In this document: piece by piece, positions 139 through 22,792 of the stretch
Layout of the letters: every line of letters starts with the position of its first letter
Position numbering within the stretch: position 1 is the first letter of the stretch
Assembly: GCA_036377055.1 (NCBI GenBank)
Contig: DASUZD010000007.1
Location: forward strand, 1-61,665
From: Gaiellaceae bacterium
GTDB taxonomy: Bacteria; Actinomycetota; Thermoleophilia; Gaiellales; Gaiellaceae
DNA: 61,665 nt
Direction of reading: 5' to 3'
Program-made: the position numbers and the translations under genes
The notes under the pieces: generated by a model
What the model saw: the letters and a program-made list of their open reading frames with translations, nothing else
Databases searched by the model: none
Told to the model about the DNA's origin: nothing

Positions 139-978
139 GTGGCTTCGCGACGCCGAGCCCGCGGCCGCGTCTTGGCGACCCTCGCGCTCGTTCCTGCGCT
201 CGCGCTGCCGCTCGGCGCCGGCGGCGTAAACCAGCCGCTTGTCCAGCTCGTCGTCGTCGTTCGCGGCGGCGGCTCCGTCGACGCGAAGCCCGGCGCTCAC
301 ACGTGCCGGATTCGCTGCGTCTGGCGCTTCCAGCGTGGCGCTCGCGCGACGTTTTCGGCCCGGCCGGCCGCAGGGAGCGCCTTCGCCGGCTGGGGCGGCG
401 CCTGCTCGAGCGCCCGCTCAGCGTGCACGTTCAAGGTCACGAGGCGGCGGACCGTCGTCGCTCGCTTCGGCGCCGAGCAAACCCCCGTCTCGTGGTCCCC
501 GCATGTTCACTGCACGCCGGTGCTGACGAGCGTACCGGAGATCCTCGGCTCGGAGCAGAATGCCGCGGGAGGCGCCACGGAGGCGGGAGGGCGCTTCCAG
601 CCGCACCTCCGCGGCGGCACGCAGCAGCACTTGCTCAACCCGCCGTGCAACGTCGACGGAACGCCCGCGTTCGTCGAGATTCACGACGTCGTCATCTCGA
701 GAGCGCCGAACCGAAGCAGCGACGGCGACGACTCGACCAACCTCACGCAGGCCGACCGCCCTGACATCACGAATCCGAACCTGAAGACGATTCACGTGGA
801 GATCGACGGAACGTGGATCGCCGCCGGGGTCAACCCGCCCTTCTGGCCGGAGGCGCTCGGGACAAGGCTCGACGTCCAGGGCTTCGTGTTCTGGGATCCG
901 GCGCACCTCGACGACGCGTGGCACGGCTACTCGGGCTGGGAGCTCCACCCGGTCGCGGCCTGGCGCATAGCAAGCTAA
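139..978 (+). CDS. Secreted hypothetical protein with an InlB-B-repeat-like N-terminal domain
   Basis: GTG start. The N-terminus RRRARGRVLATLALVPALALPLGAGG looks like a signal peptide. The segment GGGSVDAKPGAHTC..C...GARATFSARPAAGSAFAGWGGAC..C resembles divergent InlB B-repeat domains. I do not recognise the C-terminal half. Confidence 0.6.
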   Translation: MASRRRARGRVLATLALVPALALPLGAGGVNQPLVQLVVVVRGGGSVDAKPGAHTCRIRCVWRFQRGARATFSARPAAGSAFAGWGGACSSARSACTFKVTRRRTVVARFGAEQTPVSWSPHVHCTPVLTSVPEILGSEQNAAGGATEAGGRFQPHLRGGTQQHLLNPPCNVDGTPAFVEIHDVVISRAPNRSSDGDDSTNLTQADRPDITNPNLKTIHVEIDGTWIAAGVNPPFWPEALGTRLDVQGFVFWDPAHLDDAWHGYSGWELHPVAAWRIAS

Positions 979-1757
979 GCGCGAAAGGCCTCCGCGTCGT
1001 CCTGCGGGTGATAGCCGATCTCGTCGGCTGCGTCCTCGATCTCCCAGAAGCGCCAGGTGTTGCGAGAGACGCCGTAGTAGACGCGGAAGCCGAGGTCGGC
1101 ACGCGCCTCGAGCGCGCACCCGACGAGCCGCAGCAGGTCCGCGTGCGTCAGGAGCGTCGCGAAGTCGCGAGGCTTGCCCGGCCGATTCGCCGCGTTCACG
1201 GTCCCGATCCGGAGGCAGATCGGAGACAGGTCGAACGCGTCGGCGTACCACCGCGCCGCGGCCTCGCCGAGCAACTTGCCGAGCGCGTAGGCGCCGTCTG
1301 GCCGGATCGGCGTGCGGGGGCCGATCAGCGGGATCGAACCGGCGTCGAGCCCGGCGTAGTCGCCGGCGACGATCGCGCTGTACGGCGGGTCGCGCTCGTA
1401 CATCCCGGTCACGTGGTTCGAGCTCGCGAACACGTAGCGGCGGACACCGGCCTCCCGGGCGGCCTCGAGGACGTTCATCGTCGCCGGGAGGTTGTTCTTC
1501 CAGATGGCTCTCCAGGCGGCTCGATCGTCTGCGATGCCGGCCAGGTCGACGACCGCGTCGGCCCCCTCGAGAAGCGACGAGAGCGATCCGGGGCGCGCCA
1601 GGTTCCGGCGGCGGATGTTCGGCGGGCGGCGGAGCGCTCGATCGACGGCGCTCAGCTCGTAGCGATCGCCGAGGCCGCGCATCAGCACCGTCCCGATCAG
1701 GCCGGCCGCGCCTGTGATCAGGACTTTGCGCGGCGTCTGCGAACCTCGCGCGACCAC
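975..1757 (-). CDS. NAD-dependent epimerase/dehydratase (SDR family)
   Basis: Rossmann motif KVLITGAAGLIG lies near the N-terminus and the catalytic YxxxK is present as YALGK. It forms the last 261 codons of the 975..3272 ORF. I take the in-frame GTG at 1757 as the start, which overlaps the upstream gene by 40 nt, but the start is uncertain. Confidence 0.85.
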   Translation of the reverse strand: MVARGSQTPRKVLITGAAGLIGTVLMRGLGDRYELSAVDRALRRPPNIRRRNLARPGSLSSLLEGADAVVDLAGIADDRAAWRAIWKNNLPATMNVLEAAREAGVRRYVFASSNHVTGMYERDPPYSAIVAGDYAGLDAGSIPLIGPRTPIRPDGAYALGKLLGEAAARWYADAFDLSPICLRIGTVNAANRPGKPRDFATLLTHADLLRLVGCALEARADLGFRVYYGVSRNTWRFWEIEDAADEIGYHPQDDAEAFRA

Positions 1758-2788
1758 ATCAGGTGCGTGGACATGGGCTCGCCGGGATGCCTGAGGCCGC
1801 GGCCGGTGCGGGCGAGCTTCTCGCGCCACGACTCGTCCGCGTCCGGGAGGAGCGTCAGGCGGGCGGCGGTCCGGAGGTCGGCGACGGCGGCGCGCGGAGG
1901 CAGCTCCCAGAAGACGTGCAGCCACCGCATCAGCTGGCTGTCGAGCACCGTCCGCTCGCGCACCGACCCGAGATGCCGCGCCCACACGCGGAGCGGCGTC
2001 GTCGTCGGACCGCTCTCGAAGAGCGCTCGGATCGCGGCGCGGGTGGTGAGCCAGATCTTCGGGATTCCCCAGTCGTCCGCGGTCTCCGCGAGCTCGGCCT
2101 CGGAACAGGCGAGGGACACGGCCGCGACGTCCACGAGGTCGCGAAGCGTCCGCAACGGGTCGTGGCTCCAGGCGTGCGCGGCGAGGATCAGCGCGTGATG
2201 CACCGGATCGGGCGCCGAGATGCCGTCGACGCCGACGCCGGACGGGCCGGATCGTTCGAGGATCTCGCCGAGCGGCGGCGGCGTGCCCGGCCAGAGGGGC
2301 GCCGTATGGAGCTCGACCTTCAGCCCGACGGCCGGCGACTTGAGCGGGCGAAGGTGATGGTGGTCGACGAAGTCCTCGGGATCGTCGACCTCGACGAAGC
2401 CCGCCGCGATCAGCGCGCGCTGGGCGGCAGGCGCGTCGCCGGCGAGCAGGTCGACGTCGCCGAAGGTGCGGGCCGAGCCCGGGTAGAGACGCGCGACCTC
2501 CGGGCCTTTGAACAGGACGAGCGGGCCGTCGCACAGGCTTCTGATCGTCTCCAGGAGCGGCCGCGCCATCACAACCGCCGCTGCCGCGCCCCGCTCGTCT
2601 CCGGCGAGGGCCGCGGGAACGGGTCGCCCACGCTGCCGCAGCAGCCGCGCGGCGACGGCGCCGAGCTTGTGCGCGCGGATGCCCTCGACCTCGGCCCCGT
2701 CGAGGACGCGCTCGAGCGCCTGCCAGAGCTTGCCGGAAGCGTCTTCGCGCCGGACAGTGGGCGGTGCCTCGGCGGGGGCCACGGTCAT
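1718..2788 (-). CDS. Nucleotidyltransferase family protein (NTP_transf_5-like), paralogue 1
   Basis: The motif FGDVDLL and the overall layout resemble the uncharacterised nucleotidyltransferase family found beside peptide-tailoring kinases. Its ATG overlaps the upstream stop as ATGA at 2785-2788. Confidence 0.75.
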   Translation of the reverse strand: MTVAPAEAPPTVRREDASGKLWQALERVLDGAEVEGIRAHKLGAVAARLLRQRGRPVPAALAGDERGAAAAVVMARPLLETIRSLCDGPLVLFKGPEVARLYPGSARTFGDVDLLAGDAPAAQRALIAAGFVEVDDPEDFVDHHHLRPLKSPAVGLKVELHTAPLWPGTPPPLGEILERSGPSGVGVDGISAPDPVHHALILAAHAWSHDPLRTLRDLVDVAAVSLACSEAELAETADDWGIPKIWLTTRAAIRALFESGPTTTPLRVWARHLGSVRERTVLDSQLMRWLHVFWELPPRAAVADLRTAARLTLLPDADESWREKLARTGRGLRHPGEPMSTHLMWSREVRRRRAKS

Positions 2789-3837
2789 TCGACCCGAGTC
2801 CGACCGGCCGGAGTGGCCGTCGGTCGCGCCGCAGCTCGCCGCACGACCTCGATCGGCACCTGGCTGCGCCGCTGCAAGCCGAGCTCGTCGCGGAGGAACG
2901 TCGGCAGCGCGACCAGCGCCGCCGGCAGCGAGCGGTCCGAGGTGACGTGCAGGAACCGCGTCGCGATCCTCGGCGTCGGGCCGAGGAGCGGCCGCGTCCG
3001 CCCGGCCTCCCTGTGCGCGAGGCGCTCTCGCCGGCCGACGGGAGCAGCTTCGAGCTCGCGGATGGTCTTGGCCGGAACGTCGGCGCTGAGCTCGCGGCCG
3101 AGGTACACGAGCGCGTCGCGGAGGCGGAGCGTCGCGCGCAGCCGGCGCGCCTGGCGAACGAGCCGGTCCCAGTCGATCCCCGTCTCCAAGACCGAAAGGG
3201 CGTCGGCGAGCCAGAGGATGTTCGGGAACACGGTCGCCCGTGCTCCGGCGAGGCAGACGCGAACGAGCTCATCGGTCGGGCCGAGCACCCGGGCGCTCGT
3301 CTCGCCGAGCTGGACTAGAAACGTGGCGGCCCAGACGTCCTCGAGGTCGGGATCGGCGAACTCCCGCGCGAACCGCTCGTGGAGCGTGACCGCGCCGCCG
3401 TCGACGGACCCCGCCGCGGCATGACCTCCGCGGACGAGAGCCTCCAAGCCATCGACCGGCCGAAGCCCGAAGTCACCGCCGAGGTAGTGCGCGGGGAACT
3501 GCCAGCCGCCGACGACGACCGGCTCCGCGCCGCGCCCCTCGAGCGCCCGCAGCGCCGCCGTCACTCCGTCGAGCTGAACGTGGTTCAGGTACCAGGTGCG
3601 GCGGCGGATCCCGGCCAGCCTGGGCATGTACGAGTCCTCGATGCCGAGCCCGTCGAGCCGCCGGTGCACGAGCGGGAGCAGCGGGAACGAGCCGGGCTCG
3701 AGCCTGTCGAGATCGAGCCGCGGCCGAAGGCGGCGCCACGCCTCGGCGCCGGCCTCGTCGCCGCCGAACGCCGTCAGCAGGAGCAGCTTCTGCCGCTCGG
3801 TGGGCCAGAACGACCCTTCGAGGCCGGGCTCCTTCAC
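2785..3837 (-). CDS. Nucleotidyltransferase family protein (NTP_transf_5-like), paralogue 2, possibly degenerate
   Basis: It aligns by eye to paralogue 1, but the acidic motif reads VDGLEALV instead of DVDLL. I take the GTG at 3837, which overlaps the GT2 stop as GTGA at 3834-3837. The upstream part of the 437-aa ORF is Arg-rich shadow sequence. Confidence 0.7.
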   Translation of the reverse strand: MKEPGLEGSFWPTERQKLLLLTAFGGDEAGAEAWRRLRPRLDLDRLEPGSFPLLPLVHRRLDGLGIEDSYMPRLAGIRRRTWYLNHVQLDGVTAALRALEGRGAEPVVVGGWQFPAHYLGGDFGLRPVDGLEALVRGGHAAAGSVDGGAVTLHERFAREFADPDLEDVWAATFLVQLGETSARVLGPTDELVRVCLAGARATVFPNILWLADALSVLETGIDWDRLVRQARRLRATLRLRDALVYLGRELSADVPAKTIRELEAAPVGRRERLAHREAGRTRPLLGPTPRIATRFLHVTSDRSLPAALVALPTFLRDELGLQRRSQVPIEVVRRAAARPTATPAGRTRVE

Positions 3838-4535
3838 CTGGTCGCAGCGCGGCGGCGATCGAGGGCCGCCTTCAGCACATGCAGGTACTGCGGTTTCGAC
3901 TCGCGCTGCCGGATGCCGTTGTTGTCCGCGTGGAGCCGCCGCTCGAGCACGACGACGGGCGGCACGGCGCTCCGCAGCCCGAGCTCGTTGGCGCGCGCGT
4001 GCCAGTCGACGCCGATCCCGACCTTGAGCTCGGTGGAGAAGAGGCCCACGCGCAGGAATGATTCGCGCTTGACGAGCATCAGGTTCGGCGTCGGCCACGG
4101 CACGTCGTGCTCGGGCGCGCGCAGGAGCGCACGCGCCGCGTCGTCGAGATCGGGGCTCGAGAACTCCGTGACGTGCCCGTAGACGACGTCGAGCTCCGGC
4201 TCGGCCGCGAAGACCGCGAGCTGGCTGCGCAGCTTGTCCGGCGGGAAGCGGTCGTCGGCGTCGAGGAAGGAGAGGTAGCTGCCGTGCGCCTCGGGAATCG
4301 CGCGATTGCGAGCCGCCGCCATCCCGCCGTTCTCCTGGCGGATGCAGCGAACTCGCTCGCCGTACGACTCGGCGACCTCGCCGCTCCGATCGGTCGACCC
4401 GTCGTCGACGACGATCAGCTCGACCGCCGGATGCGTCTGGGCGAGGACGCTCTCGATCGCCTCGCCGAGGTAGCGCTCGCAGTTGTAGACGCCGATCACC
4501 ACCGTGACGAGCGGAGGTCTGCTCGCGGCGTCCAT
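3834..4535 (-). CDS. Family 2 glycosyltransferase (GT-a)
   Basis: VTVVIGVYNCERYL...LIVVDDGSTDRS...LDADD is a classic GT2 signature. The ATG at 4535 lies 6 nt after the kinase stop. Confidence 0.85.
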   Translation of the reverse strand: MDAASRPPLVTVVIGVYNCERYLGEAIESVLAQTHPAVELIVVDDGSTDRSGEVAESYGERVRCIRQENGGMAAARNRAIPEAHGSYLSFLDADDRFPPDKLRSQLAVFAAEPELDVVYGHVTEFSSPDLDDAARALLRAPEHDVPWPTPNLMLVKRESFLRVGLFSTELKVGIGVDWHARANELGLRSAVPPVVVLERRLHADNNGIRQRESKPQYLHVLKAALDRRRAATR

Positions 4536-4540
4536 CTGCG

Positions 4541-5605
4541 TCAGTCGAGCCGCTCGAGGAGCCGGACGAGCTCGGCGGGGATCGTCTCGACGTCCGCGCC
4601 CAGCTCGAGCACGAAGCTCGGCAGGGTCCTGACGAGGTCTGCCATCCGCGCGAGCGCCTCGCGCGCGGGCGGGTGCAGCTGGAAGATCGTGCTCGGCGCG
4701 AGAGCGGCGAGCGCCGCAGCGTGGCTGGCCGGAACGATGCGGGCCGTGCGCCGGTCGGTCACGCGCGGCAGGACGATCGCACGCAGCGGGAACCCGGCGA
4801 TCGACCGGCCCGGAAACGCGGTCGCGACGTAGAGGACGGCCTTCTCGTCCGCGCGGTCGCCGTCCGCGAGCGCAGCTTCGAGGTGCGGCAGCCGGTGCAC
4901 GTCGTCGTGGTGCACCTTGGCCGCGCAGTAGAGGCTGTGCACGAACGGCTCGCGCTCGCCGCCGACGGCGACGTAGTCGTCGCCCGCGTACCGCAGCCGT
5001 TCGTCGAGGAGGCTCGCGAGCGCGGTCGTCGACTTCCCCGAGCCGCCCGGACCGACGATCAGCGCTCCTCCGTCCTTCGTCCCGACCGCTCCTCCGTGCA
5101 CCTGCCGGCAGCCCTGTGCGTCGAGGCACCAGCTGAGCAGGTGGCGGAACGGCGCGCTGTACTCCCAGTACGGAAGCCGCGTCGCGTCCGGCATCCAGAA
5201 CCATCCGGCGGCCCCGTCGGCCGACAGCACGCTCAGGACGTCCGAGGCCGGCTGGTGCAGCGCGCGGAACTCGAGCTCGTCGTAGAAGTACGAAGGGCCG
5301 GCGCCCGTCGTCGGCGTCTCGGCCTCGGACGGGCGGCCGGCTGCGAACGCGGGACGCTCGACCGAATCCCAGACGTGGAGCGTCAGCGCAGGCGCATCGT
5401 CGCGGGCCGTGACGAGGTGAGCGAACGCGCGACCGAGCGCGTCGGCCGCCGTCGTGCCGGCGAAGCGCACGCGGACGGCGCTGCCCGCGACGGCGAGCCG
5501 AAGATCGACCGGGCCGCCCGCCGCGCGCGCCGCGCGCTCGAACCCCGCGTCGAGGCCCGCAGGTGTCGGCGCCGGCTCCGGCGGAGCCGTGGCCGCGTGG
5601 GTCAC
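4541..5605 (-). CDS. HPr-kinase-like P-loop protein (HprK-related kinase, K1)
   Basis: HGGAV...LIVGPGGSGKSTTALA...YAGDDY is an HPr kinase C-terminal-like Walker A region. The GTG start at 5605 overlaps the PqqD stop as GTGA. Confidence 0.8.
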   Translation of the reverse strand: MTHAATAPPEPAPTPAGLDAGFERAARAAGGPVDLRLAVAGSAVRVRFAGTTAADALGRAFAHLVTARDDAPALTLHVWDSVERPAFAAGRPSEAETPTTGAGPSYFYDELEFRALHQPASDVLSVLSADGAAGWFWMPDATRLPYWEYSAPFRHLLSWCLDAQGCRQVHGGAVGTKDGGALIVGPGGSGKSTTALASLLDERLRYAGDDYVAVGGEREPFVHSLYCAAKVHHDDVHRLPHLEAALADGDRADEKAVLYVATAFPGRSIAGFPLRAIVLPRVTDRRTARIVPASHAAALAALAPSTIFQLHPPAREALARMADLVRTLPSFVLELGADVETIPAELVRLLERLD

Positions 5606-6054
5606 TCCCGGCCTTCGTCGGCTGGCGCGGGCTGAGGCCAGCCCTGCGCGCCGACCTCGTGGACGGGATCGAGCAGGATCAGGTCCTGCATGTCCGTGTG
5701 CTTCTCCAGGGCAGGCGGACGGAACGGCGCCCGCGGGCCGCCGTTGCTTGCCGGAAGCGGCGTTTCGGGCATCGGCGCCGGACCCGCGTGGCTTCGAATC
5801 AGCCCCTCGTCCACGAGCTGGTCGAGCAGTTGGCGCACGCCGTCGCGCATCTCCTGCTCGGATCCCTCGTATTGCACCCTGAGCGCCGCGAGGGCGTCGT
5901 CCTCGTCTGCACCCCATTCGATTGCCTGCCAGATCGCCGCGCCCGCCTCGCGGAGGCTGTAGTACGTCCCGCTCGTGAGGTCGATCAGGATGACCTCACC
6001 CTCGATCGTCTCGTGGATCACGTTCGGGCTGTTCACCCGAAAGCGTGCTGCCAT
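5602..6054 (-). CDS. PqqD-family (RRE) peptide-chaperone-like protein with a C-terminal extension of about 60 aa
   Basis: The core FRVNSPNVIHETIEGEVILIDLTSGTYYSLREAGAAIWQAI matches the PqqD pattern. The ATG at 6054 is preceded by GGAGAAGGAGGGGGG. A Pro-rich linker and the tail ...DMQDLILLDPVHEVGAQGWP follow the PqqD fold. Confidence 0.8.
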   Translation of the reverse strand: MAARFRVNSPNVIHETIEGEVILIDLTSGTYYSLREAGAAIWQAIEWGADEDDALAALRVQYEGSEQEMRDGVRQLLDQLVDEGLIRSHAGPAPMPETPLPASNGGPRAPFRPPALEKHTDMQDLILLDPVHEVGAQGWPQPAPADEGRE

Positions 6055-6172
6055 CCCCCCTCCTTCTCCCCTGTCCGGCACAGAGCCGCTCTCTATCCCT
6101 TACACGCAGTATGCCCGTCGCCCGCGGCCCGCTCAACGCCCCCGAGATGCCGGACGCTGTACAAACGAGCCT

Positions 6173-7222
6173 ATGGAAGCGGTTGGAAGCGATTGGCTGA
6201 AAGAGAACCTCGCGGAGATCGAGGCGAGCTTCGAGGCGGCGGCCAACGTTTCCGTCGACCGCTACGAGATCGGAGGCGCTGCTGTCGAGCTCCGGTTCGC
6301 GAGCCCCGCGCTCCGCGAGCGGCTGACACGGGCCTTCGCGCACGTCGCCGTCCCGGCCGGGGCGTCGGCCGCGAGCCTCACCGTCCACCTCTGGGACTCC
6401 GCCTCGACCGGCGCCGATCCACCGCCGCGTCCCGAAACACCGGCCGACCAGCCGCAGGGGGCGCTGTACCACCTCGCCGAGCCGCCGCTCCGCGCTGCCT
6501 ACCAACCGGGCCTCGAGACGCTCAGCGTGCTCGACTCCGAGGCCGGCGTCGCGTGGTTCTGGATCGCGAACGCCTTCGAGCAGCCGTCGTGGGACCAGGC
6601 CTGCCCGATCCGGCAGATCCTGTTCTGGTGGCTCGCCGGGCGCGGGTATCTCCAGGTTCACGGCGCCGCCGTCGGGACGGAGGCGGGCGGCGTCCTCGTC
6701 GTCGGCACGCCCGGCTCGGGAAAGTCGACGGTCGCGCTCGCCTGCCTCGACTCCGAGCTCCGCTACGCCGGAGACGACTACGTCGCCGTCGAGGTCGAGC
6801 CGAGCCCGAACGTCGCGAGCCTCTACAACTCCGCGAAGCTCGAGCCGGAGCACGTCCGCGAGCTCCTGCCGCACCTGCTGCCGCTGCTCGCGAACGCCGA
6901 CCGGCTCGAGACCGAGAAGGCCGTCCTGTACGTCCACGAGCACTTTCCGGAGCGGACGACGGCGGGCTTTCCACTCCGCGCCGTGCTCGTCCCGAAGCTT
7001 CGCCCGGCCCGACAAGAGACGCGGATCGCAGAGGCGTCACGCGCCACCGCCTTCGCCGCCCTCGGCCCGAGCACCATCTTCCAGCTGCACACCGCAGGCG
7101 CCGCGGAGCTGGCGACGATGTCGAGCCTGGTCGCGCGCGTCCCTTGCTACACGCTGGAGGTCGGCGCCGACCCGACGACGATCCCGCCGGCCGTTCTTTC
7201 TATCCTCCGACCGGATGAGTGA
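6173..7222 (+). CDS. HPr-kinase-like P-loop protein (HprK-related kinase, K2)
   Basis: It is a paralogue of K1 over its full length (HGAAVGTEAGGVLVVGTPGSGKSTVALA...YAGDDYV). The ATG at 6173 diverges from the PqqD gene across a 118-bp spacer. Confidence 0.8.
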   Translation: MEAVGSDWLKENLAEIEASFEAAANVSVDRYEIGGAAVELRFASPALRERLTRAFAHVAVPAGASAASLTVHLWDSASTGADPPPRPETPADQPQGALYHLAEPPLRAAYQPGLETLSVLDSEAGVAWFWIANAFEQPSWDQACPIRQILFWWLAGRGYLQVHGAAVGTEAGGVLVVGTPGSGKSTVALACLDSELRYAGDDYVAVEVEPSPNVASLYNSAKLEPEHVRELLPHLLPLLANADRLETEKAVLYVHEHFPERTTAGFPLRAVLVPKLRPARQETRIAEASRATAFAALGPSTIFQLHTAGAAELATMSSLVARVPCYTLEVGADPTTIPPAVLSILRPDE

Positions 7223-7883
7223 GCCGCTCGTGTCGGTGATCGTCGCCGCCTACAACGGCGAGCGGTTCCTGAACGAGACGCTCCAGAGCGTGTTCGCCCA
7301 GGACTACGAGCCGTTCGAGGTCGTCTTCGTCGACGACGGCTCCACCGACCGGACCGCAGAGATCGCGCAGTCGTTCCCGGTGCGCTTTGTGCGCCAGGAG
7401 AACCGAGGGCTGCCGGCAGCCAGGAACGCCGCGCTTGCCGTCGCGAAGGGCGAGCTCGTAGCCTTCCTCGACGACGACGACGTTCTCCCACCGACGAAGC
7501 TCAGCGTCCAGGCCGCCTATCTCCGCGAGCACGCCGAGGTCGGCTGCGTGCTCGGCCGCCAGGAATGGATCCTCGACGGCGTCGGGGAGCCGACGCTGCC
7601 GCGCGACCCGATCTTCGGCGAGGTCGGCGGCATCCAGCTCGTGACGGCGATGATCCGCCGCCGCGTGCTCGACAAGCTGGGCGGGTTCGACCCGAGCTAC
7701 CGCTACGCGGAGGACCGCGACCTCTTCATCCGGATGCGCGAGCGCGGCGTCGAGATCGCCGTCCTCCCCGAGGTCGTCCTGCACAAGCGGCTGCACGGCT
7801 CGAACATGACCATGAACCGGCCCGACACGCACCCGATGCTCCGCTCGCTGCGCGAGAAGCTGGAACGCGAGCGCCAAGGCTAG
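7215..7883 (+). CDS. Family 2 glycosyltransferase (GT-b)
   Basis: VSVIVAAYNGERFL...VVFVDDGSTDRT...LDDDD is a GT2 signature. It is a paralogue of GT-a and overlaps the K2 stop by 8 nt. Confidence 0.85.
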   Translation: MSEPLVSVIVAAYNGERFLNETLQSVFAQDYEPFEVVFVDDGSTDRTAEIAQSFPVRFVRQENRGLPAARNAALAVAKGELVAFLDDDDVLPPTKLSVQAAYLREHAEVGCVLGRQEWILDGVGEPTLPRDPIFGEVGGIQLVTAMIRRRVLDKLGGFDPSYRYAEDRDLFIRMRERGVEIAVLPEVVLHKRLHGSNMTMNRPDTHPMLRSLREKLERERQG

Positions 7884-7925
7884 GGCGGAAGGCATTTCCG
7901 CCCGGCGGGCGAAACTCCGGGCGGC

Positions 7926-8522
7926 GTGCGCGTGCGACGAATCGAGACCTTCGACTTGGAGACCGCGCGTCCGAACTGGCTCACCGGGGGCGCGCTGCGG
8001 CTCGGCCTGCTGAGCCTCTTCATCGTGCTGACGGCGATGGTGCGGCCGCGCCTCACGCATTCGAGCGCCGGCTGGCTGCTCCTCGCGGGCGTGCTGTTCG
8101 TCGTCGTGGGCCTTGCGCTCTTCTCGGTCGCGACGCGGCGAATCGCACTCGCGCTGCCGTTCCTCGACCGGTCGTGGCGCTTGACGGACGCCGTGTTGCT
8201 CCTCCTGCGGCGGATCGGGCTGCCGTTGCTCGGGCTCGCGTTCTTCCTCGTCTGGACGTTCGTCTACGTCGGGATCTGGTGGATTCACCCGCACGAGGCC
8301 TTCCGCGGCCTCGACCCGCACCCGCGCTTCGCGGACTTCTTCTACACAGCGGTCTCGACCGCGTTCATCTCGCCGCCCGGCGACATCCTCGCCCACTCCC
8401 GCGGCGCCCGCGCGGCGACGATGATCGAGATGCTGACCGCGTTCGCCCTTGTCACGGCCTACGCCGGCAGCTTCCTCGAGCTGCGCAGCGCGCGCGAGCC
8501 GTCACTCGACGACCGCTCCTAA
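7926..8522 (+). CDS. Membrane protein with a K+-channel-like pore module and a degenerate filter
   Basis: It has four or more hydrophobic helices. FADFFYTAVSTAFISPPGDI aligns to the pore-helix/filter region of two-TM K+ channels, with ISPPGD in place of TVGYGD. GTG start. Confidence 0.5.
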   Translation: MRVRRIETFDLETARPNWLTGGALRLGLLSLFIVLTAMVRPRLTHSSAGWLLLAGVLFVVVGLALFSVATRRIALALPFLDRSWRLTDAVLLLLRRIGLPLLGLAFFLVWTFVYVGIWWIHPHEAFRGLDPHPRFADFFYTAVSTAFISPPGDILAHSRGARAATMIEMLTAFALVTAYAGSFLELRSAREPSLDDRS

Positions 8523-12149: not shown

Positions 12150-13523
12150 CTACGAAGCCGCGGCGAGGCGCGGGCGCGGCTCCGGCGCCGGCACAAGGAT
12201 CTGGCCGGTCTCCATCGCGCGCTCGAGGGCGCCGACGGCGTCGGGGCAGAACTGGATCCCGGTCGCGCCGCGGATCTCCGCGAGCGCGAGCGCAGGCTCG
12301 AAGCCGGCACGGTAGACGCGGTCGGTGACCATCGAGTCGAGCGCGTCCGCGAGGTGGACGACGCGCGCGAGGAGCGGGATGTCGTCGCCCCGAAGGCCAT
12401 CGGGATAGCCGCTGCCGTCCAGCCGCTCGTGGTGGTGGCGGATGATCGGAACGGCCGCGTCGAGGAAGCCGAGGCGCTCGATGATCTGGGCCCCTTCCTG
12501 GGAGTGGGTCTGCATGATCTTCCACTCCTCCGCGGTCAGCCGTCCGGCCTTGAGGAGGATCGCGTCGGGGATCGCGATCTTGCCGATGTCGTGCAGGAGC
12601 GCCGCCTGGGCGAGGACCTCGAGCTCCTCCGCGTCGAGGCCGAGCTCCGCGCCGATCGCGAGCGAGATGTGGCGGACTCGCCGCGAATGACCGGCCGTGT
12701 ACGCGTCGCGCGCGTCGACCGTCGCTGCGAGACCCTCCATCGCCGCGCGCGAGCGCTCTCTGAGCAGCTCGTTCGCGTCCTGGAGCGAGACGTTCTGGCG
12801 CTGGATCGTGTCCGACGCCCGCTCTAGCTCGCCGGCGCTGCGCTGGAGGTAGTAGATGAGCATGAGCGGCGCCAGCGCGAACGGCGCGATCCACCGCTCG
12901 ACGCCGCCGAGGACGGCGAGCGAGACGCCCATGGCGCTGAGCGAGAAGTCGATCCAGAGATCCTCGACCGTGAAGAGGCGTGTCTCCCTCGGGCCGACGC
13001 GCCGGGCCGCCTGGAGCATCGCCGTGAGCAGAAGCCTGTTCACCACGAGGAAGGTGACGGTCGCCGCGAGCCCGCTCAGGAGGAGCAGCGGCGCACCTGT
13101 CGCCCGCGCCGCCCAAGCCGCGGCGAGGCTCGACACGACGTAGTTGCAGATGTTGAAGGTCTGGACGTACCAGCGGTACCGCCGGCGGATCCAATCCGGG
13201 ATGTGCTGGATCACGCACATGAGCACCAGGAGCGGCGTCGGCAGAAGGAGCGCCCCCGCGATCACGAAGACGAGCGCGGCGTGGAAGACCTGGTGACGCG
13301 ACGGCTTCGGGAGCGCAAGGACCTGCGTCAGTGCCGCTGGGATCGCCAGCGAAGCGAAGAGAAGCCAGCTCGAGGCCGGAACAGGCGCCTCGAATCCGAC
13401 GCCGGCACTCCACGCCGAGATCGCGACGATGACGAACAGCACCGCGAGCCCAGGGGCCGGAAGGCCGTCGACGGCGAATGCGCGACGACGCCGATGGAGA
13501 GAAGTGTCCGCAGCTTCGACCAT
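12150..13523 (-). CDS. Membrane-anchored HD-GYP domain phosphodiesterase
   Basis: HDIGKIAIP...HHERLDGSGYPDGL is an HD-GYP signature, and the N-terminal half has about 6-7 TM helices. I take the ATG at 13523. The upstream part of the ORF is not protein-like. Confidence 0.85.
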   Translation of the reverse strand: MVEAADTSLHRRRRAFAVDGLPAPGLAVLFVIVAISAWSAGVGFEAPVPASSWLLFASLAIPAALTQVLALPKPSRHQVFHAALVFVIAGALLLPTPLLVLMCVIQHIPDWIRRRYRWYVQTFNICNYVVSSLAAAWAARATGAPLLLLSGLAATVTFLVVNRLLLTAMLQAARRVGPRETRLFTVEDLWIDFSLSAMGVSLAVLGGVERWIAPFALAPLMLIYYLQRSAGELERASDTIQRQNVSLQDANELLRERSRAAMEGLAATVDARDAYTAGHSRRVRHISLAIGAELGLDAEELEVLAQAALLHDIGKIAIPDAILLKAGRLTAEEWKIMQTHSQEGAQIIERLGFLDAAVPIIRHHHERLDGSGYPDGLRGDDIPLLARVVHLADALDSMVTDRVYRAGFEPALALAEIRGATGIQFCPDAVGALERAMETGQILVPAPEPRPRLAAAS

Positions 13524-13623
13524 GGCAGAGGCGCGGGGAGATCGAGGTTGCGCCCCTACGCGATATAGACGCGTCCAAAAGTGCGTGCCTCCCCCGTTCG
13601 CGGGAGGAAAACGACTGCCGTAA

Positions 13624-13716
13624 CCCCCCCGGTAGGGGGATGATCGCGAGCCGAGTCGCTGCTTAATCGATGGAGGACGTGTGCGTTTTTGCGGCGACTC
13701 GAAGGAGGTGACGCAC
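13624..13716 (+). promoter_or_regulatory. Structured leader, copy 1, upstream of sORF-1
   Basis: The hairpin is CCCCC-GGTA-GGGGG (13626-13639). A 7-bp stem TGTGCGT (13680-13686) / ACGCACA (13711-13717) encloses the SD GAAGGAGGTG and pairs with the A of the AUG. The same architecture recurs at 16282-16370. Confidence 0.45.
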
Positions 13717-13815
13717 ATGCTGCGGTGGAACGTTCGCTACGTCAGGGCGGTCATCGCTCTCGGCGCGTTCGCGGCTCTGCTCGTGGATGCCGGGGCGGGA
13801 CTTCGTTGGTCGTAG
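13717..13815 (+). CDS. 32-aa single-TM miniprotein (sORF-1): MLRWNVRYVRAVIALGAFAALLVDAGAGLRWS
   Basis: A strong SD precedes the ATG. A paralogue lies at 16371-16469. The two differ by about 10 synonymous third-position changes and only a few conservative replacements, which argues for translation under purifying selection. Confidence 0.55.
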   Translation: MLRWNVRYVRAVIALGAFAALLVDAGAGLRWS

Positions 13816-13874
13816 CAAATTCGAGCGGCGGGGCCGGACCTCTCCGGCGTCGGCCCTGATCCGCCCACCCTGCC

Positions 13875-15710
13875 GTGCCTTCGATGAGCCCGCGCATGCC
13901 GACCCAGATCGGTGGATTCCCGATCCGCCTCTTTGCGTACGTGGCCCTCGCGGTCAGCCTCGCCGTTCCGGCGGTGCTCGTGGCACTGGTGGAGCTGGCG
14001 CTGAAGCCACCGTCGGCGGCCGAAGGCGCCGGGATCGCGCTCTTCCTCATGCTCGCGCTCGCCGCGGATTTCCACCCCGTGCCCCTCGACGAGGAGGGCA
14101 ACGAGGTCTCGCTTGCGTTCGTCTTCATCGTCGCCGTTCTCCTGATCTTCGGCTGGCACGTCGCCGTCCCGATCGCGGCTGTCAGTGTCCTGGCTCCTGA
14201 GCTCGCGCGTGGGCGACCGCCTCTTCGCGCAGCCTTCAACAGCGCCGTCTACACGCTCGCCGCTCTGGCTGCGCTCGTCCCGAGGCTTGCCCTCGGCTTT
14301 CTGCCGGGGGACGCGGCCGAGCGCGTAACTGCGGCCGCCTTTCTCTGCGGAGCCGTGTACGTCGTCATCAACGTCGCGCTCGTCGCAGGCGCGGCATCGC
14401 TCGCACAGGGCGTCGCCTACCGCCGAGTCTTCAGCGAGAACCTCCGCTACGGCGGCGCAGCGTTCGGGATCATGGCGTTCTTCGCCGCTTTGGCGGCGAA
14501 TCTTTGGCACCTGAAGCCGCTACTGCTCGTCTTGCTCGCAGGGCCGTTGTTCACCGTGACGCTCTACCAGCGCAGCGTTCTGCGCTCGCGCATCGCGCTC
14601 CGCGACGCGAACACGGACAACCTGACGGGACTGGGAAACCATCGGGCGTACCAGGCGGCGCTGCGGACGAGCGTGGAGGAGGCCCGAAAGACGGGCGCAC
14701 CCCTGTCGCTCTGCCTGCTGGACATCGACGATTTCAAGCGCCTGAACGACGGCTACGGGCACGGGCTCGGCGACGAGGTGCTCGTGCGCATCGCCGGCCT
14801 GCTGAAACAGGCCGAGGGGACGCAGGCCTTCCGGTTCGGCGGCGACGAGTTTGCTGTCCTCGTCCCGGTTGGCGATGCCGTCGCCTGCAGCCGATTCGAG
14901 CGTGTCCAGCGCGAGCTTGCCGGAGCGGAGCTCTCACCCGACGGTCCGGTCACGATCAGCGTCGGCATCGCTTCCTTCCCGGCACATGGCCGCGACGCGG
15001 AGGCGCTACAGGAGGTGGCCGACGGGGCGCTCTACTGGTCGAAGCGCCACGGGAAGAACCGTGCCTGCATCTACAGCCCCGGGATCGTCCGCGTGCACTC
15101 GACCACAGACCTCGAACGCGAGGCCGAGCGCGCGGCGCGTCTTCGCGCCGCGACGAACCTCGTGCGGTTCCTCGACGCCAAAGATGCTTCGACGGCCAAC
15201 CATTCCGAGATCGTCGCGACGCTGGCGGCCGCGATCGGCGAGCAGCTCGATCTCGACGCGGACACGATCGCGCAGCTGCGACTCGCGGGGCTCCTGCACG
15301 ACCTCGGGAAGATCGGGATCCCCGAGCGGATCCTGCAAGCCCCACGGGGGCTCACCGGAGACGAGTTCGCGATCGTCCGCCGTCACCCTGAGATCGGCCA
15401 TTCGCTGCTCGAGGGGATCGACCTCGCGCCGGTCGACGACTGGATCCTCCAGCACCACGAACGCTGGGACGGCCTCGGCTACCCGAACGGCCGTGTCGGC
15501 GCGGAGATCCCGCTCGGGGCGCGGATCATTCACGCTGCGGACGCCTTCGAGGCGATGACGGCGGGACGCACTTACCGCGGCGCCCGCTCGACCGAAGACG
15601 CGCTCGCGGAGCTCCAGGACCAGGCTGGAGCGCAGTTCGATCCCGACGTCGTCGCCGCCTTCGAGCGCTACCTCGCCCGAGTCGACGAGCGCCTTCTCCT
15701 CTCCGCCTGA
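13875..15710 (+). CDS. Membrane sensor with GGDEF and HD-GYP domains
   Basis: The N-terminus has multiple TM helices. The diguanylate cyclase core is D.F.RLNDGYGHGLGDEVL...FRFGGDEFAV. The HD-GYP signature is HDLGKIGIP...HHERWDGLGYPNG. The start could be 13875 (GTG), 13884 or 13896 (ATG). Confidence 0.85.
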   Translation: MPSMSPRMPTQIGGFPIRLFAYVALAVSLAVPAVLVALVELALKPPSAAEGAGIALFLMLALAADFHPVPLDEEGNEVSLAFVFIVAVLLIFGWHVAVPIAAVSVLAPELARGRPPLRAAFNSAVYTLAALAALVPRLALGFLPGDAAERVTAAAFLCGAVYVVINVALVAGAASLAQGVAYRRVFSENLRYGGAAFGIMAFFAALAANLWHLKPLLLVLLAGPLFTVTLYQRSVLRSRIALRDANTDNLTGLGNHRAYQAALRTSVEEARKTGAPLSLCLLDIDDFKRLNDGYGHGLGDEVLVRIAGLLKQAEGTQAFRFGGDEFAVLVPVGDAVACSRFERVQRELAGAELSPDGPVTISVGIASFPAHGRDAEALQEVADGALYWSKRHGKNRACIYSPGIVRVHSTTDLEREAERAARLRAATNLVRFLDAKDASTANHSEIVATLAAAIGEQLDLDADTIAQLRLAGLLHDLGKIGIPERILQAPRGLTGDEFAIVRRHPEIGHSLLEGIDLAPVDDWILQHHERWDGLGYPNGRVGAEIPLGARIIHAADAFEAMTAGRTYRGARSTEDALAELQDQAGAQFDPDVVAAFERYLARVDERLLLSA

Positions 15711-15716
15711 CCCGGC

Positions 15717-16292
15717 ATGGCACTCGTCTACCCGCTCCTGCTCGGCCTCTTCCTCGCGCCCCTGCTTGGCGGCGACCTCCGACGCCTGGCCGACCTGCGC
15801 CTGCGGGCGACCCGCCTGATCTACCTGGCGCTGACGCTCCAGCTCGTCGCGTTCCCCGTCGGCGCCATGCCTTGGCAGCCATCCGATACCACAGCCGTCG
15901 TCCTCTGGCTCGCGTCCTATGCCTGCCTCGCCGCAGCGACCGGGATCAACATCCGCCTGGGTGGCATGCCGCTGATCGCCGCCGGCCTGGTCGCGAACCT
16001 CGCCGCGATCGTCGCCAACGGCGGTCATATGCCGGTCCTGCCGGCCGCGATGCGCGCCGCCGGCCGCTCGTACCACGTCCACTTCAACAGCGCCGCGGCT
16101 TCGGCGCCTCACCTTCCCTGGCTCGTCGACCGCTGGGCTGTGCCCGACTGGATCCCCCTCGCCAACGTCTTTTCGGTCGGCGATGTCCTCATCGCACTCG
16201 GCGGCGTCTTGTTTCCGCTCGTGGCGACAGGTGCATGCCGGCTCCCAGCGTCACGGGCTGCGGGAGCCGAGGCAAGGCTTTCCCCCCGGTAG
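15717..16292 (+). CDS. DUF5317-like integral membrane protein (copy A)
   Basis: The pattern LGGDLRRLA.L.L....LI.LAL.LQL......ANGGHMPV......SVGDVLIALG matches my memory of DUF5317. It starts 7 nt after the upstream stop. Its TAG stop sits in the loop of the CCCCC/GGGGG hairpin of leader copy 2. Confidence 0.7.
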   Translation: MALVYPLLLGLFLAPLLGGDLRRLADLRLRATRLIYLALTLQLVAFPVGAMPWQPSDTTAVVLWLASYACLAAATGINIRLGGMPLIAAGLVANLAAIVANGGHMPVLPAAMRAAGRSYHVHFNSAAASAPHLPWLVDRWAVPDWIPLANVFSVGDVLIALGGVLFPLVATGACRLPASRAAGAEARLSPR

Positions 16293-16370
16293 GGGGATGA
16301 CGCCGCCGGCGATCGCACCTACATCGAGGATGTCGTGTGCGTTTGCGGCGATGAAAAGGAGGTGACGCAC
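16282..16370 (+). promoter_or_regulatory. Structured leader, copy 2, upstream of sORF-2
   Basis: It has the same CCCCC-GGTA-GGGGG hairpin (16283-16296). It also has the same TGTGCGT (16336-16342) / ACGCACA (16365-16371) stem around the SD AAAGGAGGTG. Confidence 0.45.
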
Positions 16371-16469
16371 ATGGTTCGCTGGCAAATCCGATACATCAGG
16401 GCAATGATCGCCCTCGGCGGCTTCGCAGCGCTGCTCGTCGACGCGGGCGCGGGGCTGCGCTGGAAGTAG
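16371..16469 (+). CDS. 32-aa single-TM miniprotein (sORF-2): MVRWQIRYIRAMIALGGFAALLVDAGAGLRWK
   Basis: It is a paralogue of sORF-1 with the same length and the same SD context. A GC-rich hairpin (GGGCCGG / CCGGCCC, 16485-16511) follows it. Confidence 0.55.
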   Translation: MVRWQIRYIRAMIALGGFAALLVDAGAGLRWK

Positions 16470-16529
16470 CACCCTGACGCTGAAGGGCCGGCCCTCGAGC
16501 TCCACCGGCCCTCTGCCGAAGTAGTAGAA

Positions 16530-17129
16530 ATGGTCCTCGTCTATCCGCTCGTCGTCGGCCTCCTCGTCGCGCCCCTGCTCGGCGGCGACCTGAGGAAGCT
16601 CGCCCAACTCAGGCTGCGCGGCGTCTCGCTCCTCTACCTCGCGCTCGGCCTCCAGCTCGTCGCGTTCCCCGTCGGCGCCCTTCCGGTGCGGGTGGGCGAC
16701 TCGACGGCCGTCGTCCTCTGGCTGCTGTCGTATGGATTGCTGGCCGTCGCGACGGTCTTGAACATCCGTCGCGCGGGCCTTCCGCTGATCGCAGCCGGCG
16801 TGGCCGCCAACGTGGCCGCGGTCGTCGCGAACGGAGGCCACATGCCCGTGCTCCCGGAGGCCATGCACGCGGCGGGCTACGCCTACGGGGTCCACTTCAA
16901 CAGCGCGGCGCTCGCGAGCCCGCATTTCGCGTGGCTTGTCGACCGCTGGGCCGCGCCTCGCTGGCTCCCGGGAGCGAACGTCTTCTCGCTCGGCGACGTG
17001 CTGATCGCGCTCGGCGGCCTACTCTTCCCGCTCGGCGCGACAGGCGTCTTACGGCGACTGCGGTTGCGCCTGCCTGGCTCCACGCGGCAGCCGGTGTTGC
17101 AGATCCTGGAGGCAAAGCGCGAGGCTTGA
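16530..17129 (+). CDS. DUF5317-like integral membrane protein (copy B)
   Basis: It is a full-length paralogue of 15717-16292 (LGGDLRKLAQLRLRG...ANGGHMPV...SLGDVLIALG). Confidence 0.7.
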   Translation: MVLVYPLVVGLLVAPLLGGDLRKLAQLRLRGVSLLYLALGLQLVAFPVGALPVRVGDSTAVVLWLLSYGLLAVATVLNIRRAGLPLIAAGVAANVAAVVANGGHMPVLPEAMHAAGYAYGVHFNSAALASPHFAWLVDRWAAPRWLPGANVFSLGDVLIALGGLLFPLGATGVLRRLRLRLPGSTRQPVLQILEAKREA

Positions 17130-22418: not shown

Positions 22419-22511
22419 TTAGCCGCCCCAGCTGGAGAACACGATCACCTTGCTCACCTCCCGAGGCTCCGGCGCAATCTGCTGAATGGTGTTCGCGGGC
22501 GTCTTCTTCAT
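22419..22511 (-). CDS. 30-aa peptide gene 1: MKKTPANTIQQIAPEPREVSKVIVFSSWGG
   Basis: An ATG-initiated 30-codon ORF ends in TAA and has its own terminator. The last 13 codons are nucleotide-identical to those of gene 2, and the ATG context GCGCCATCGAGATG is conserved. There is no strong SD before the ATG. An internal SD plus GTG gives an alternative 9-codon ORF (see findings). Confidence 0.5.
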   Translation of the reverse strand: MKKTPANTIQQIAPEPREVSKVIVFSSWGG

Positions 22512-22699: not shown

Positions 22700-22792
22700 C
22701 TAGCCGCCCCAGCTGGAGAACACGATCACCTTGCTCACCTCCTTGGGGCGGTCTGCCGCGACTCGTGCTGTTCTGTCGGCGGTCGTCGTCAT
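22700..22792 (-). CDS. 30-aa peptide gene 2: MTTTADRTARVAADRPKEVSKVIVFSSWGG
   Basis: It has the same length, the same ATG context and an identical 42-nt 3' block (22701-22742 = 22420-22461). Its N-terminal 17 codons are almost completely diverged. It has its own terminator. Confidence 0.5.
   Translation of the reverse strand: MTTTADRTARVAADRPKEVSKVIVFSSWGG

Follow-up and report, generated by a model that had tools for sequence, protein, structure and literature searches.

HprK-like kinases phosphorylate Ser residues of lasso peptide precursors before cyclization (literature including PMC10368454). BsfK and LppK are peptide Ser kinases assisted by a RiPP (ribosomally made, post-translationally modified peptide) recognition element, or RRE (PMC10368454, PMC13381572), and BsfK is strongly stimulated by its RRE, BsfB1, which is thought to recruit it (PMC10368454). 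Attachment of one or two hexoses to the phosphate of phospho-Ser depends on PsmN, which is annotated as an uncharacterized NTP transferase and whose acidic DxD motif has been mutated as D134/D136 (PMC6993621). Linear Polyphosphorylated Peptides (LPPs) are non-lasso products of capsule loci in Bacillota (Popov et al., Nat Commun 2026, PMC13381572), and the leaders of both lasso peptides and LPPs bind RREs via a [Y/W]xxPx[L/V/I] motif (PMC13381572, PMC10368454). Here we describe a gene cluster at positions 975-8522 of a 61,665-nucleotide stretch of Gaiellaceae DNA (contig DASUZD010000007.1; "the window" denotes this whole stretch). It encodes a PqqD-family protein, two HprK-like kinases (K1 and K2), two family-2 glycosyltransferases (GT2-a and GT2-b), two NTP_transf_5 nucleotidyltransferases (NT1 and NT2) and a short-chain dehydrogenase/reductase (SDR). 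It is established that the locus belongs to a conserved cassette, that its RRE and kinase are homologous to those of RRE-dependent phosphorylation systems, that its nucleotidyltransferase is in PF14907 and that lasso machinery is absent. The cassette probably decorates a peptide or protein with sugar linked through phosphate, and does so with no lasso enzymes.

Comparison with described systems

The LPP system is the closest characterized system to the cassette. An earlier note on this DNA, made from the sequence alone, had found no characterized class to match; the LPP family, with its RRE, HprK-like kinase and NTP transferase, was described in 2026 and fills that place (PMC13381572). Compared by description and not by LppB/LppK/LppN sequence, the two have in common a discrete lasso-like RRE, a kinase of the HprK-like type, an NTP transferase that is uncharacterized, a [Y/W]xxP-type leader motif, a glycosyltransferase-rich or capsule-like context and a predicted phospho- and glyco-modified linear product. 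On the other hand, the cassette core has neither an SpI-like (SipW-type) leader peptidase nor an MsbA-like exporter, and two to four GT2 genes are integral to it. The LPP precursor is separate and has an N-terminal YxxPxVLxHQxIxFETxxS leader, whereas the cassette has no separate precursor. The LPP core is variable, whereas the segment after the RRE-fused leader of the cassette is strongly conserved, and LPPs are reported to be restricted to Bacillota, whereas the cassette is found in at least 11 phyla.

The paeninodin, pseudomycoidin and Bsf clusters (PMC8498205, PMC6993621, PMC10368454) resemble the cassette in their B1-type RRE, in the identical H-G-G-G-K-S-D-D spacing of the kinase and in an uncharacterized NTP-transferase partner (PsmN, BsfN), which is likened here by description and not by Pfam family. 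RRE-assisted phosphorylation about 13-14 residues past the Leu/Val position of the leader motif offers a further likeness, but the acceptor-equivalent position in the cassette is an invariant Asp-Pro, not Ser. Unlike all three, the cassette has no macrolactam synthetase, B2 protease or free precursor, and it has dedicated GT2s. The HPr-rel-A system (TIGR04352 and TIGR04353) likewise pairs an uncharacterized HprK-related kinase with a PqqD-family protein, and JGI names a few close PqqD homologs (65-69% identity) after it. However, K1, K2 and PqqD score below the cutoffs, as related families and not members would, and the TIGR04353 model spans the 74-aa PqqD domain, not the tail described below. 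HPr kinase/phosphorylase (HprK/P) and ATP-dependent phosphoenolpyruvate carboxykinase (ATP-PEPCK) share a common P-loop nucleotide-binding domain with the cassette kinase (K2 on PEPCK, TMq ~0.55), but family-level sequence membership is lacking, the gene context is different and there is no HPr partner. The cassette lacks several defining features of LPP, lasso clusters and HPr-rel-A alike. Literature searches on NTP_transf_5/PF14907 and on HPr-rel-A/TIGR04352 returned no functional study.

The cassette in other genomes

A pattern-plus-tblastn scan of species-representative genomes yielded 62 related loci in at least 11 phyla, including Actinomycetota, Chloroflexota, Bacteroidota, Ignavibacteriota, Cyanobacteria, Acidobacteriota, Planctomycetota, Binatia, alpha-, beta- and delta-proteobacteria and one candidate-phylum (Uhrbacteria) genome. 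The window proteins were mapped onto six-frame open reading frames (ORFs) of these loci, revealing a recurrent order on one strand: PqqD, a single kinase, two to four GT2 genes (b-type first, a-type last) and an NT2-type nucleotidyltransferase. PqqD is present in all 53 evaluable loci and is situated directly upstream of the kinase in 44. Of 47 loci, 42 have at least one GT2 gene downstream of the kinase and 32 have at least two; an NT2-type gene is present in 41 of the 47. A GT2-b-type gene lies directly 3' of the kinase in most loci, a GT2-a-type gene comes last, before NT2, in nearly all, and SDR homologs adjoin the cassette in 21. The linkage of PqqD, kinase, nucleotidyltransferase and glycosyltransferase on which the earlier note relied is thus strongly conserved in other genomes.

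The two divergent arms of the window locus had been read as an inverted duplication centered on the PqqD gene, with both the kinases and the glycosyltransferases 40-50% identical. The estimate holds for K1 and K2, which are 48% identical over 340 aa (E 4e-82), but not for GT2-a and GT2-b, at 36% identity; NT1 and NT2 show no BLASTP similarity and share a Pfam family only. Because the GT2 genes stand in tandem on one strand after a single kinase in related loci, GT2-a and GT2-b are the two ancient GT2 positions of the cassette, not local duplicates, and the inverted duplication was abandoned. Judged by this comparison, the window locus is a rearranged, split two-kinase form of a co-directional cassette, in which the kinase alone is extra. 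In a neighbor-joining tree, K2 groups with the sole kinases of single-strand Gaiellaceae cassettes (loci L006, L007, L009 and L010) and K1 with the sole kinase of another actinobacterial cassette (L028). The nearest relatives (L001-L005) have the same split layout as the window. They carry a gene for a 495-aa Polysacc_synt protein (PF01943, Wzx-like) between PqqD and K2 (L001:8493-9980 and L004:8490-9980, both on the minus strand), which the window lacks; its absence implies a recent loss or another export route.

Relatives of K2 form 4,342 clusters at 50% identity with E ≤ 1e-3, of which 1,387 have E ≤ 1e-30, and the closest come from Gaiellaceae metagenome-assembled genomes. Five apparent fusions (GT2-kinase, kinase-GT2, epimerase-kinase) occur among the 150 best kinase representatives, as seen in metagenomic gene calls. 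P0136, P0150, P0265 and P0268 join a GT2 with the kinase and P0222 joins an epimerase with it, which suggests that these activities may be physically coupled.

Kinases K1 and K2

Both kinases keep H163, G178, G181, G183, K184, S185, D201 and D202, with a spacing identical to that of H148-G163-G166-G168-K169-S170-D186-D187 in BsfK, residues shown to be important by mutagenesis (PMC10368454). The motif is intact in 61 of 63 cassette kinases. A profile of the cassette kinases aligned with BsfK over the whole C-terminal domain (94.7% probability), and BsfK, of 340 aa, is of much the same length as K1 and K2 (354 and 349 aa). By sequence homology, the relationship of the cassette kinase to RRE-dependent peptide-phosphorylating kinases is established.

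The same proteins might be taken for ordinary HPr kinase/phosphorylases of carbon metabolism, given the weak matches to Hpr_kinase_C and TIGR00679, but those matches are confined to the P-loop region. K1 and K2 score 16 and 24 bits against TIGR00679 (cutoff 240), 16.6 and 21.8 bits against PF07475 (Hpr_kinase_C, cutoff 33.3) and 18 and 38 bits against TIGR04352 (cutoff 200). No HPr (ptsH) or phosphotransferase system (PTS) family was found among the scanned window ORFs, and the invariant partners of the kinase are PqqD, GT2 and the nucleotidyltransferase. The AlphaFold2 (AF2) model of K2 (predicted local distance difference test, pLDDT, 89.8) has ATP-PEPCK as its best whole fold, over both domains (TMq 0.54-0.58); HprK/P structures match the modeled C-terminal domain only, and the N-terminal half aligns with PEPCK. 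A role as HPr kinase has next to no likelihood, and the scores are not those of bona fide HPr kinase/phosphorylases, which would have spoken against the idea of the earlier note.

Some homologs of K2, such as P0035, P0050 and P0066, carry a precomputed Pfam match to PF27840.1, which was not returned when the same homologs were scanned with a local Pfam copy. Some of this kinase family may already be included in a more recent Pfam family.

The RRE protein and its tail

In the PqqD protein, residues 1-89 form a B1-like winged-helix domain, which a variable linker connects to a conserved tail. Its NCBIfam scores are highest, though below cutoff, for lasso B1 chaperone models (lasso_PqqD models: 43 bits for lasso_PqqD_Bac, cutoff 80, and 39 bits, cutoff 70), and TIGR04353 is a near miss (29.2 bits, cutoff 35). 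Its AF2 model, with pLDDT >87 over most of residues 11-89, was matched by Foldseek to crystal structures of leader-bound lasso B1 proteins, the TbiB1 complexes 5V1V/5V1U (TM 0.85-0.90) and 6JX3 (0.86). The profile of the cassette PqqD proteins scores 55.6 bits against BsfB1. Model and profile agree that a discrete B1-type RRE is present.

The tail was aligned for 56 cassette PqqD proteins from many phyla. All of them have an RRE of ~90 aa, a linker variable in both length and sequence, and a C-terminal segment conserved across phyla. The consensus of this segment is [F/Y]-x-x-P-x-L-E-K-[Y/F/H]-T-D-M-Q-[D/E]-L-L-L-L-D-P-[I/V]-H-[E/D]-V-[D/E]-x-x-G-W-P, after which comes a short end that varies. 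F/Y111 is found in 46 of the proteins, P114 in 50, L116 in 53 and P140 in 55, and D129, P130, H132, G138 and W139 are each present in all 56. The start of the tail, [F/Y]xxPxL, matches the motif of RRE-bound lasso and LPP leaders. In the AF2 model, residues 111-120 have a pLDDT of 90 with a β-strand at 116-119, the linker (91-110) has block means of 54 and 70, and residues 121-150 are of lower confidence and modeled as disordered. The modeled tail is what a cis-docked leader would look like. An RRE with a fused leader and a conserved "core" is unreported in the literature searched.

The tail motif occurs once per locus, in the window as in all related loci, and a regular-expression search of the window and all loci found no leader-like or tail-like motif beyond it. 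RHS matches of the form "YYSPxLxRF" were rejected as unrelated. Around the cassettes, no small ORF of 15-90 aa is conserved across phyla; the small-ORF clusters that were found are low-complexity, antisense or tRNA-derived. Across about 58 loci, no candidate precursor turned up at up to ±10 kb. Five short proteins were returned by a homology search that used just the tail; those inspected are contig-end fragments of PqqD genes, and the search lends no support to a free-standing tail peptide. Since no leader-like motif other than the PqqD tail occurs in the window or in any of the loci, the RRE protein itself is a likelier substrate than a free peptide; the earlier note had envisaged an unknown linear peptide or protein. 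The peptides ending in FSSWGG that it had suggested as substrates have no [Y/W/F]xxPx[L/V/I] motif, lie 14 kb away and match no family or Rfam entry, and they were set aside.

Which residue of the tail would accept a phosphate is less obvious. With F111 set as Y(0), a register counted here from the published motifs, LPP phospho-Ser3 (+18) would correspond to the invariant D129 and Bsf Ser3 (+19) to P130. Position 120 is Thr/Ser in 42 of 56 tails and E, D, Q, A or G in the other 14 (Glu/Asp in 10). Thr120 was rejected as an obligatory phospho-acceptor, the kinase motif being intact in loci with these replacements. In 17 of the 56 tails, including that of the window, there is no Ser, Thr or Tyr after G-W-P, so the variable end is not the acceptor.

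Precursors of RiPPs can be unlinked from their enzymes, and the substrate might be encoded by such an unlinked gene and act in trans. The tail would then serve as a pseudo-leader by which the RRE is plugged or regulated, or as a recruiting handle for the kinase, nucleotidyltransferase or GT2s. The lack of a universal hydroxyl acceptor in the tail, while the kinases are intact, would be explained, and disorder of residues 121-150, as modeled, is expected of a docking motif. Recruitment of BsfK by the BsfB1 RRE is also thought to occur (PMC10368454). However, neither a candidate precursor nor a second copy of the leader motif was found in the searches above, the segment past the leader motif is conserved like an active site across phyla, and a permanently tethered pseudo-leader would compete with a real leader, if there were one. 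A substrate in trans is a serious rival reading, if on balance a somewhat unlikely one.

Nucleotidyltransferases

Outside Actinomycetota, NT2-type proteins retain RP[ML]NDxD[LI]L and DLHWH. NT2 of the window and of its Gaiellales/Solirubrobacterales relatives is degenerate, with RPVDGLEALV and TLHERF at these places, as expected from the earlier observation that the second nucleotidyltransferase had lost its acidic motif. The DxD region of NT2 reads DGLEAL, the first Asp being replaced by Gly and the second by Glu, whereas NT1 keeps GDVDLL. NT1-type genes occur in 13 loci, which by reading of the alignment are largely those with a degenerate NT2. As an exception, L010 has a degenerate NT2 without NT1 within its contig; L012 and L025 have an intact NT2 and lack NT1. 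Because degenerate NT2 is mostly accompanied by an NT1 with GDVDLL, NT2 is probably a pseudoenzyme or scaffold and NT1 probably its active partner. By sequence, NT1 has no homolog of solved structure.

Flanking genes

The flanks were surveyed as 130 ORFs within 3.2 kb of the cassettes, in the first 26 of 37 loci of at least 15 kb. GT1/GT4 glycosyltransferases (11), further NTP_transf_5 proteins (7), epimerases (5) and SDRs (5) are the commonest families. ATP-binding cassette (ABC) exporter parts (4-5) and GDP-mannose dehydratase (4) come next, and ATP-grasp, PMT_2, Wzy_C and Polysacc_synt occur 2-3 times each. One cluster of flank ORFs, from 14 loci, includes ABC-exporter-like sequences. No MsbA-like ABC exporter adjoins the window cassette; ABC genes lie at 8.5-11.4 kb, but by sequence reading they resemble importer permeases and a binding protein. 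An anti-phage defense reading was rejected, PADLOC giving weak P-loop matches and no defense-system match.

Such neighbors raise the possibility that the cassette serves a glycan or small-molecule pathway without any peptide. A PEPCK-like kinase would then phosphorylate a sugar or an acid, activation by the nucleotidyltransferase would come next and the GT2s would make an oligosaccharide, with the SDR and, in relatives, the Wzx-like flippase as further parts and PqqD as a scaffold. The best whole-kinase fold is ATP-PEPCK, a Polysacc_synt gene lies inside the cluster of relatives, GT4, Wzy, Wzx and GDP-mannose dehydratase are over-represented in the flanks, and the nearest relatives of GT2-b in the PDB are polysaccharide synthases. 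A kinase, nucleotidyltransferase, glycosyltransferase and epimerase would also make a chemically coherent activation route. Against this, nothing in the cassette is as constant as the RRE, present in 53 of 53 loci, and its leader-like motif, whose residues are near-invariant; the catalytic domain of the kinase has a proven peptide kinase as a homolog, and no priming phosphoglycosyltransferase is conserved among the cassette flanks. By its Pfam assignment, NTP_transf_5 falls among the Pol-β-like nucleotidyltransferases and not among the sugar-1-phosphate nucleotidylyltransferases. LPP and paeninodin clusters also occur in capsule loci, so that this context does not discriminate (PMC13381572). 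A pathway devoid of any peptide is likewise a serious rival, though in our judgment unlikely.

The other alternative that the flanks bear on is that the cassette is the tailoring half of a lasso pathway, whose cyclase, B2 protease and precursor lie elsewhere in the genome. The RRE is most similar to lasso B1 proteins, and the kinase and nucleotidyltransferase types are typical of paeninodin-like clusters (PMC8498205). When BsfB2 was searched with phmmer against six-frame ORFs of the window and 67 loci, a single match was obtained, in an Anaerolineaceae locus (L039). There, a B2-like gene at 354-1039 (minus strand) and a second PqqD-like gene form a B1/B2-like pair ~9 kb upstream of the cassette. 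This is the only co-localization of lasso genes and cassette found, and it recalls the LPP-lasso co-localization reported in Bacillota. About 57 of 58 loci, however, lack a B2-like gene at distances of up to 10 kb. Among the flanking ORFs of related loci, no large cluster of Asn-synthase-like type recurs, and Asn_synthase, transglutaminase, signal peptidase and any lasso or peptidase family are missing from the 25 most frequent flank families. In the 61.7-kb window, the BsfB2 query had no match among six-frame ORFs. A Pfam scan of all its larger ORFs found no Asn_synthase, transglutaminase, radical SAM, YcaO or LanC, as had been noted from the sequence alone, and no signal peptidase. Moreover, the leader motif is fused to the RRE, with no lasso-type core after it. 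Lasso genes are therefore not regular neighbors of the homologous clusters, L039 having the only B2-like match, and a displaced lasso pathway is very improbable. This pathway and a genuine HPr kinase are both effectively excluded.

Proposed mechanism

We tentatively read the locus, with rather less than even confidence, as a lineage-specific split form of a non-lasso cassette related to the paeninodin, Bsf and LPP phosphorylation and glycosylation machinery, in which the RRE protein would itself be the substrate, or else a carrier that can be reused. The RRE domain would bind its own [F/Y]xxPxL motif in cis, and this binding would tether the disordered D-P-x-H…G-W-P segment and present it to the kinase or kinases. 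After the kinase had added a phosphate, NT1, scaffolded by the dead NT2, and the GT2s would decorate or extend it with sugars, the SDR supplying or modifying the nucleotide sugar. In the window lineage, there may be one kinase per GT2, GT2-a being served by K1 and GT2-b by K2. Gene content, homology, conservation, motifs and the state of the catalytic residues are shown by the analysis; which residue accepts the phosphate, which sugars are added and in what order is inferred. The stand-alone peptide phospho-glycosylation system proposed in the earlier note is broadly supported, as a conserved set of RRE, kinase, nucleotidyltransferase and glycosyltransferase without lasso machinery; its unmatched class no longer stands, and a free peptide is the less likely substrate.

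Several points weigh against a self-modifying RRE protein. The whole kinase, as modeled, comes nearest in fold to PEPCK, which is a kinase of small molecules. A single AF2 model, made from a shallow alignment (60-87% identity), underlies the docking of the tail. No Ser/Thr of the tail is conserved throughout, so that a hydroxyl acceptor in cis is not obvious, and we know of no precedent for phosphorylation of Asp or His by the HprK-like kinase family. No protease or release step is encoded, and the flanks are polysaccharide-like (GT4, Wzy, Wzx, GDP-mannose dehydratase). Finally, LppN was inactive in the sole test of an LPP nucleotidyltransferase (PMC13381572).

A bolder form of the favored reading makes the RRE protein a self-priming carrier, in which a non-hydroxyl residue, Asp129 or His132, at the register of the Ser targeted by LPP and Bsf kinases, is phosphorylated and then bears a phosphate-linked glycan made by the nucleotidyltransferase and GT2s. 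Such a protein-primed phosphoglycan or cofactor-like pathway, spread over many bacterial phyla, would be unlike the RiPP and glycosylation systems described, and we regard it as improbable.

Gene layout and other features of the window

The features of the cluster are listed in Table 1. Coordinates and Pfam matches confirm the minus-strand order of PqqD, K1, GT2-a, two nucleotidyltransferases and SDR given in the earlier note, and the three start/stop overlaps (GTGA at 5602-5605 between PqqD and K1, GTGA at 3834-3837 and ATGA at 2785-2788), the 118-bp spacer and the 8-nt overlap of K2 and GT2-b (ATGAGTGA) are likewise all as it described. From the first of these overlaps, K1 is predicted to be translationally coupled to PqqD. 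Pfam gathering cutoffs are 23.4 bits for PF05402, 23.3 for PF00535, 31.2 for PF14907 and 33.3 for PF07475; PqqD (PF05402), both GT2s (PF00535) and NT1 and NT2 (PF14907) pass theirs. The best NCBIfam match of the SDR is Azf-like, at 134 bits against a cutoff of 400. A simple promoter scan and a terminator scan of the cluster, including the spacer at 6055-6172, gave nothing informative, and exact-sequence look-ups of K2 and GT2-b matched no record.

Table 1. Cluster and tail features, in coordinates of the window
Feature	Coordinates	Strand	Basis
SDR/NAD-dependent epimerase-like protein, 260 aa	975..1757	-	PF01370 85 bits; accessory gene, mainly in Actinomycetota
NT1, NTP_transf_5 nucleotidyltransferase	1718..2788	-	PF14907 71.7 bits; acidic motif FGDVDLL intact
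NT2, NTP_transf_5 paralog right after GT2-a	2785..3837	-	PF14907 44.3 bits, C-terminal half only; ancestral nucleotidyltransferase position of the cassette
GT2-a, soluble GT-A family-2 glycosyltransferase	3834..4535	-	PF00535 120.5 bits; DxD as FLDADD; ortholog of the last GT2 in the standard order
K1, HprK/BsfK-like P-loop kinase, 354 aa	4541..5605	-	Motif and BsfK profile alignment
PqqD/RRE protein, 150 aa	5602..6054	-	PF05402 52.8 bits
PqqD C-terminal tail, residues 111-140 (FRPPALEKHTDMQDLILLDPVHEVGAQGWP)	5635..5724	-	[F/Y]xxPxL and D-P-x-H…G-W-P
Divergent intergenic spacer PqqD/K2, 118 bp	6055..6172	.	Coordinates of flanking genes
K2, HprK/BsfK-like P-loop kinase, 349 aa	6173..7222	+	Motif, AF2 model, neighbor-joining tree; ortholog of the sole kinase in single-strand Gaiellaceae cassettes
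GT2-b, soluble family-2 glycosyltransferase	7215..7883	+	PF00535 120.7 bits; ortholog of the first GT2 in the standard order
Multi-pass membrane protein, 198 aa	7926..8522	+	DUF1345 E 0.008 only

On the plus strand, the order of K2, GT2-b and a membrane protein is as first described, but the channel-like character given to the last could not be tied to a confident family. The protein at 7926-8522 has no NCBIfam match and no confident Pfam family, and no homolog lies beside any of the related cassettes mapped; its membership in the cassette is doubtful. At the other end, a plus-strand gene at 172-978 is convergent with the SDR gene, whose stop codon it overlaps. It encodes a divergent InlB B-repeat domain (Flg_new_2) with an N-terminus that reads as hydrophobic and signal-peptide-like. 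It has homologs beside the cassette in L026 and L035, and related ORFs of its cluster lie beside the cassette in L001 and L015, all of them Gaiellales/Solirubrobacterales loci.

Further along the window, two 30-aa ORFs at 22419-22511 and 22700-22792, both on the minus strand, end in EVSKVIVFSSWGG; these are the peptides that were set aside above. They lie within a 281-bp tandem duplication (a 42-nt identical block and a 62-nt block of 82% identity), have no leader-type motif and no NCBIfam or Rfam match, and adjoin genes for a phosphopantetheinyl transferase and two unassigned proteins of 288 and 713 aa. They may form a separate small-peptide locus. At 26782-33684 (plus strand) lies the gene for an RHS-repeat protein of 2,300 aa that has TIG and DUF6531 domains; an orphan C-terminal fragment of an RHS protein (34804-35667) and a DUF3806 gene come after it. 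Near-duplicate genes for 142-aa HEAT-like proteins lie at 33726-34154 and 36246-36674, and GC content falls to about 0.64-0.66 across the region, from 26782 to ~36.7 kb. This region looks like a polymorphic-toxin locus. The stretch at 12150-17129 looks like a c-di-GMP signaling cluster, with an HD-GYP protein, a GGDEF plus HD-GYP protein and a pair of paralogous DUF5317 membrane proteins in succession, after which comes an AfsR/BTAD-type regulator of 1,294 aa. At 45551-48127 (plus strand), a DnaB replicative helicase is split by an intein with a LAGLIDADG homing-endonuclease domain.

Implications

RRE-guided peptide phosphorylation and phosphoglycosylation were previously known as lasso tailoring and, since 2026, from LPP, whose final product and function are still unknown. 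The cassette extends the same enzyme logic much more widely, to at least 11 phyla and 1,387 kinase clusters, and combines it with dedicated glycosyltransferases. It offers a natural pair of pseudoenzyme and enzyme among its nucleotidyltransferases, and cultured hosts are available in Intrasporangium chromatireducens Q5-1 and Coleofasciculus sp. H7-2. The RRE-borne leader and the conserved "core" that follows it make a defined, testable substrate candidate. If the tail is indeed the acceptor, the PqqD protein would be the first fusion of an RRE with a precursor, and the cassette possibly a new protein-primed glycoconjugate or cofactor pathway.

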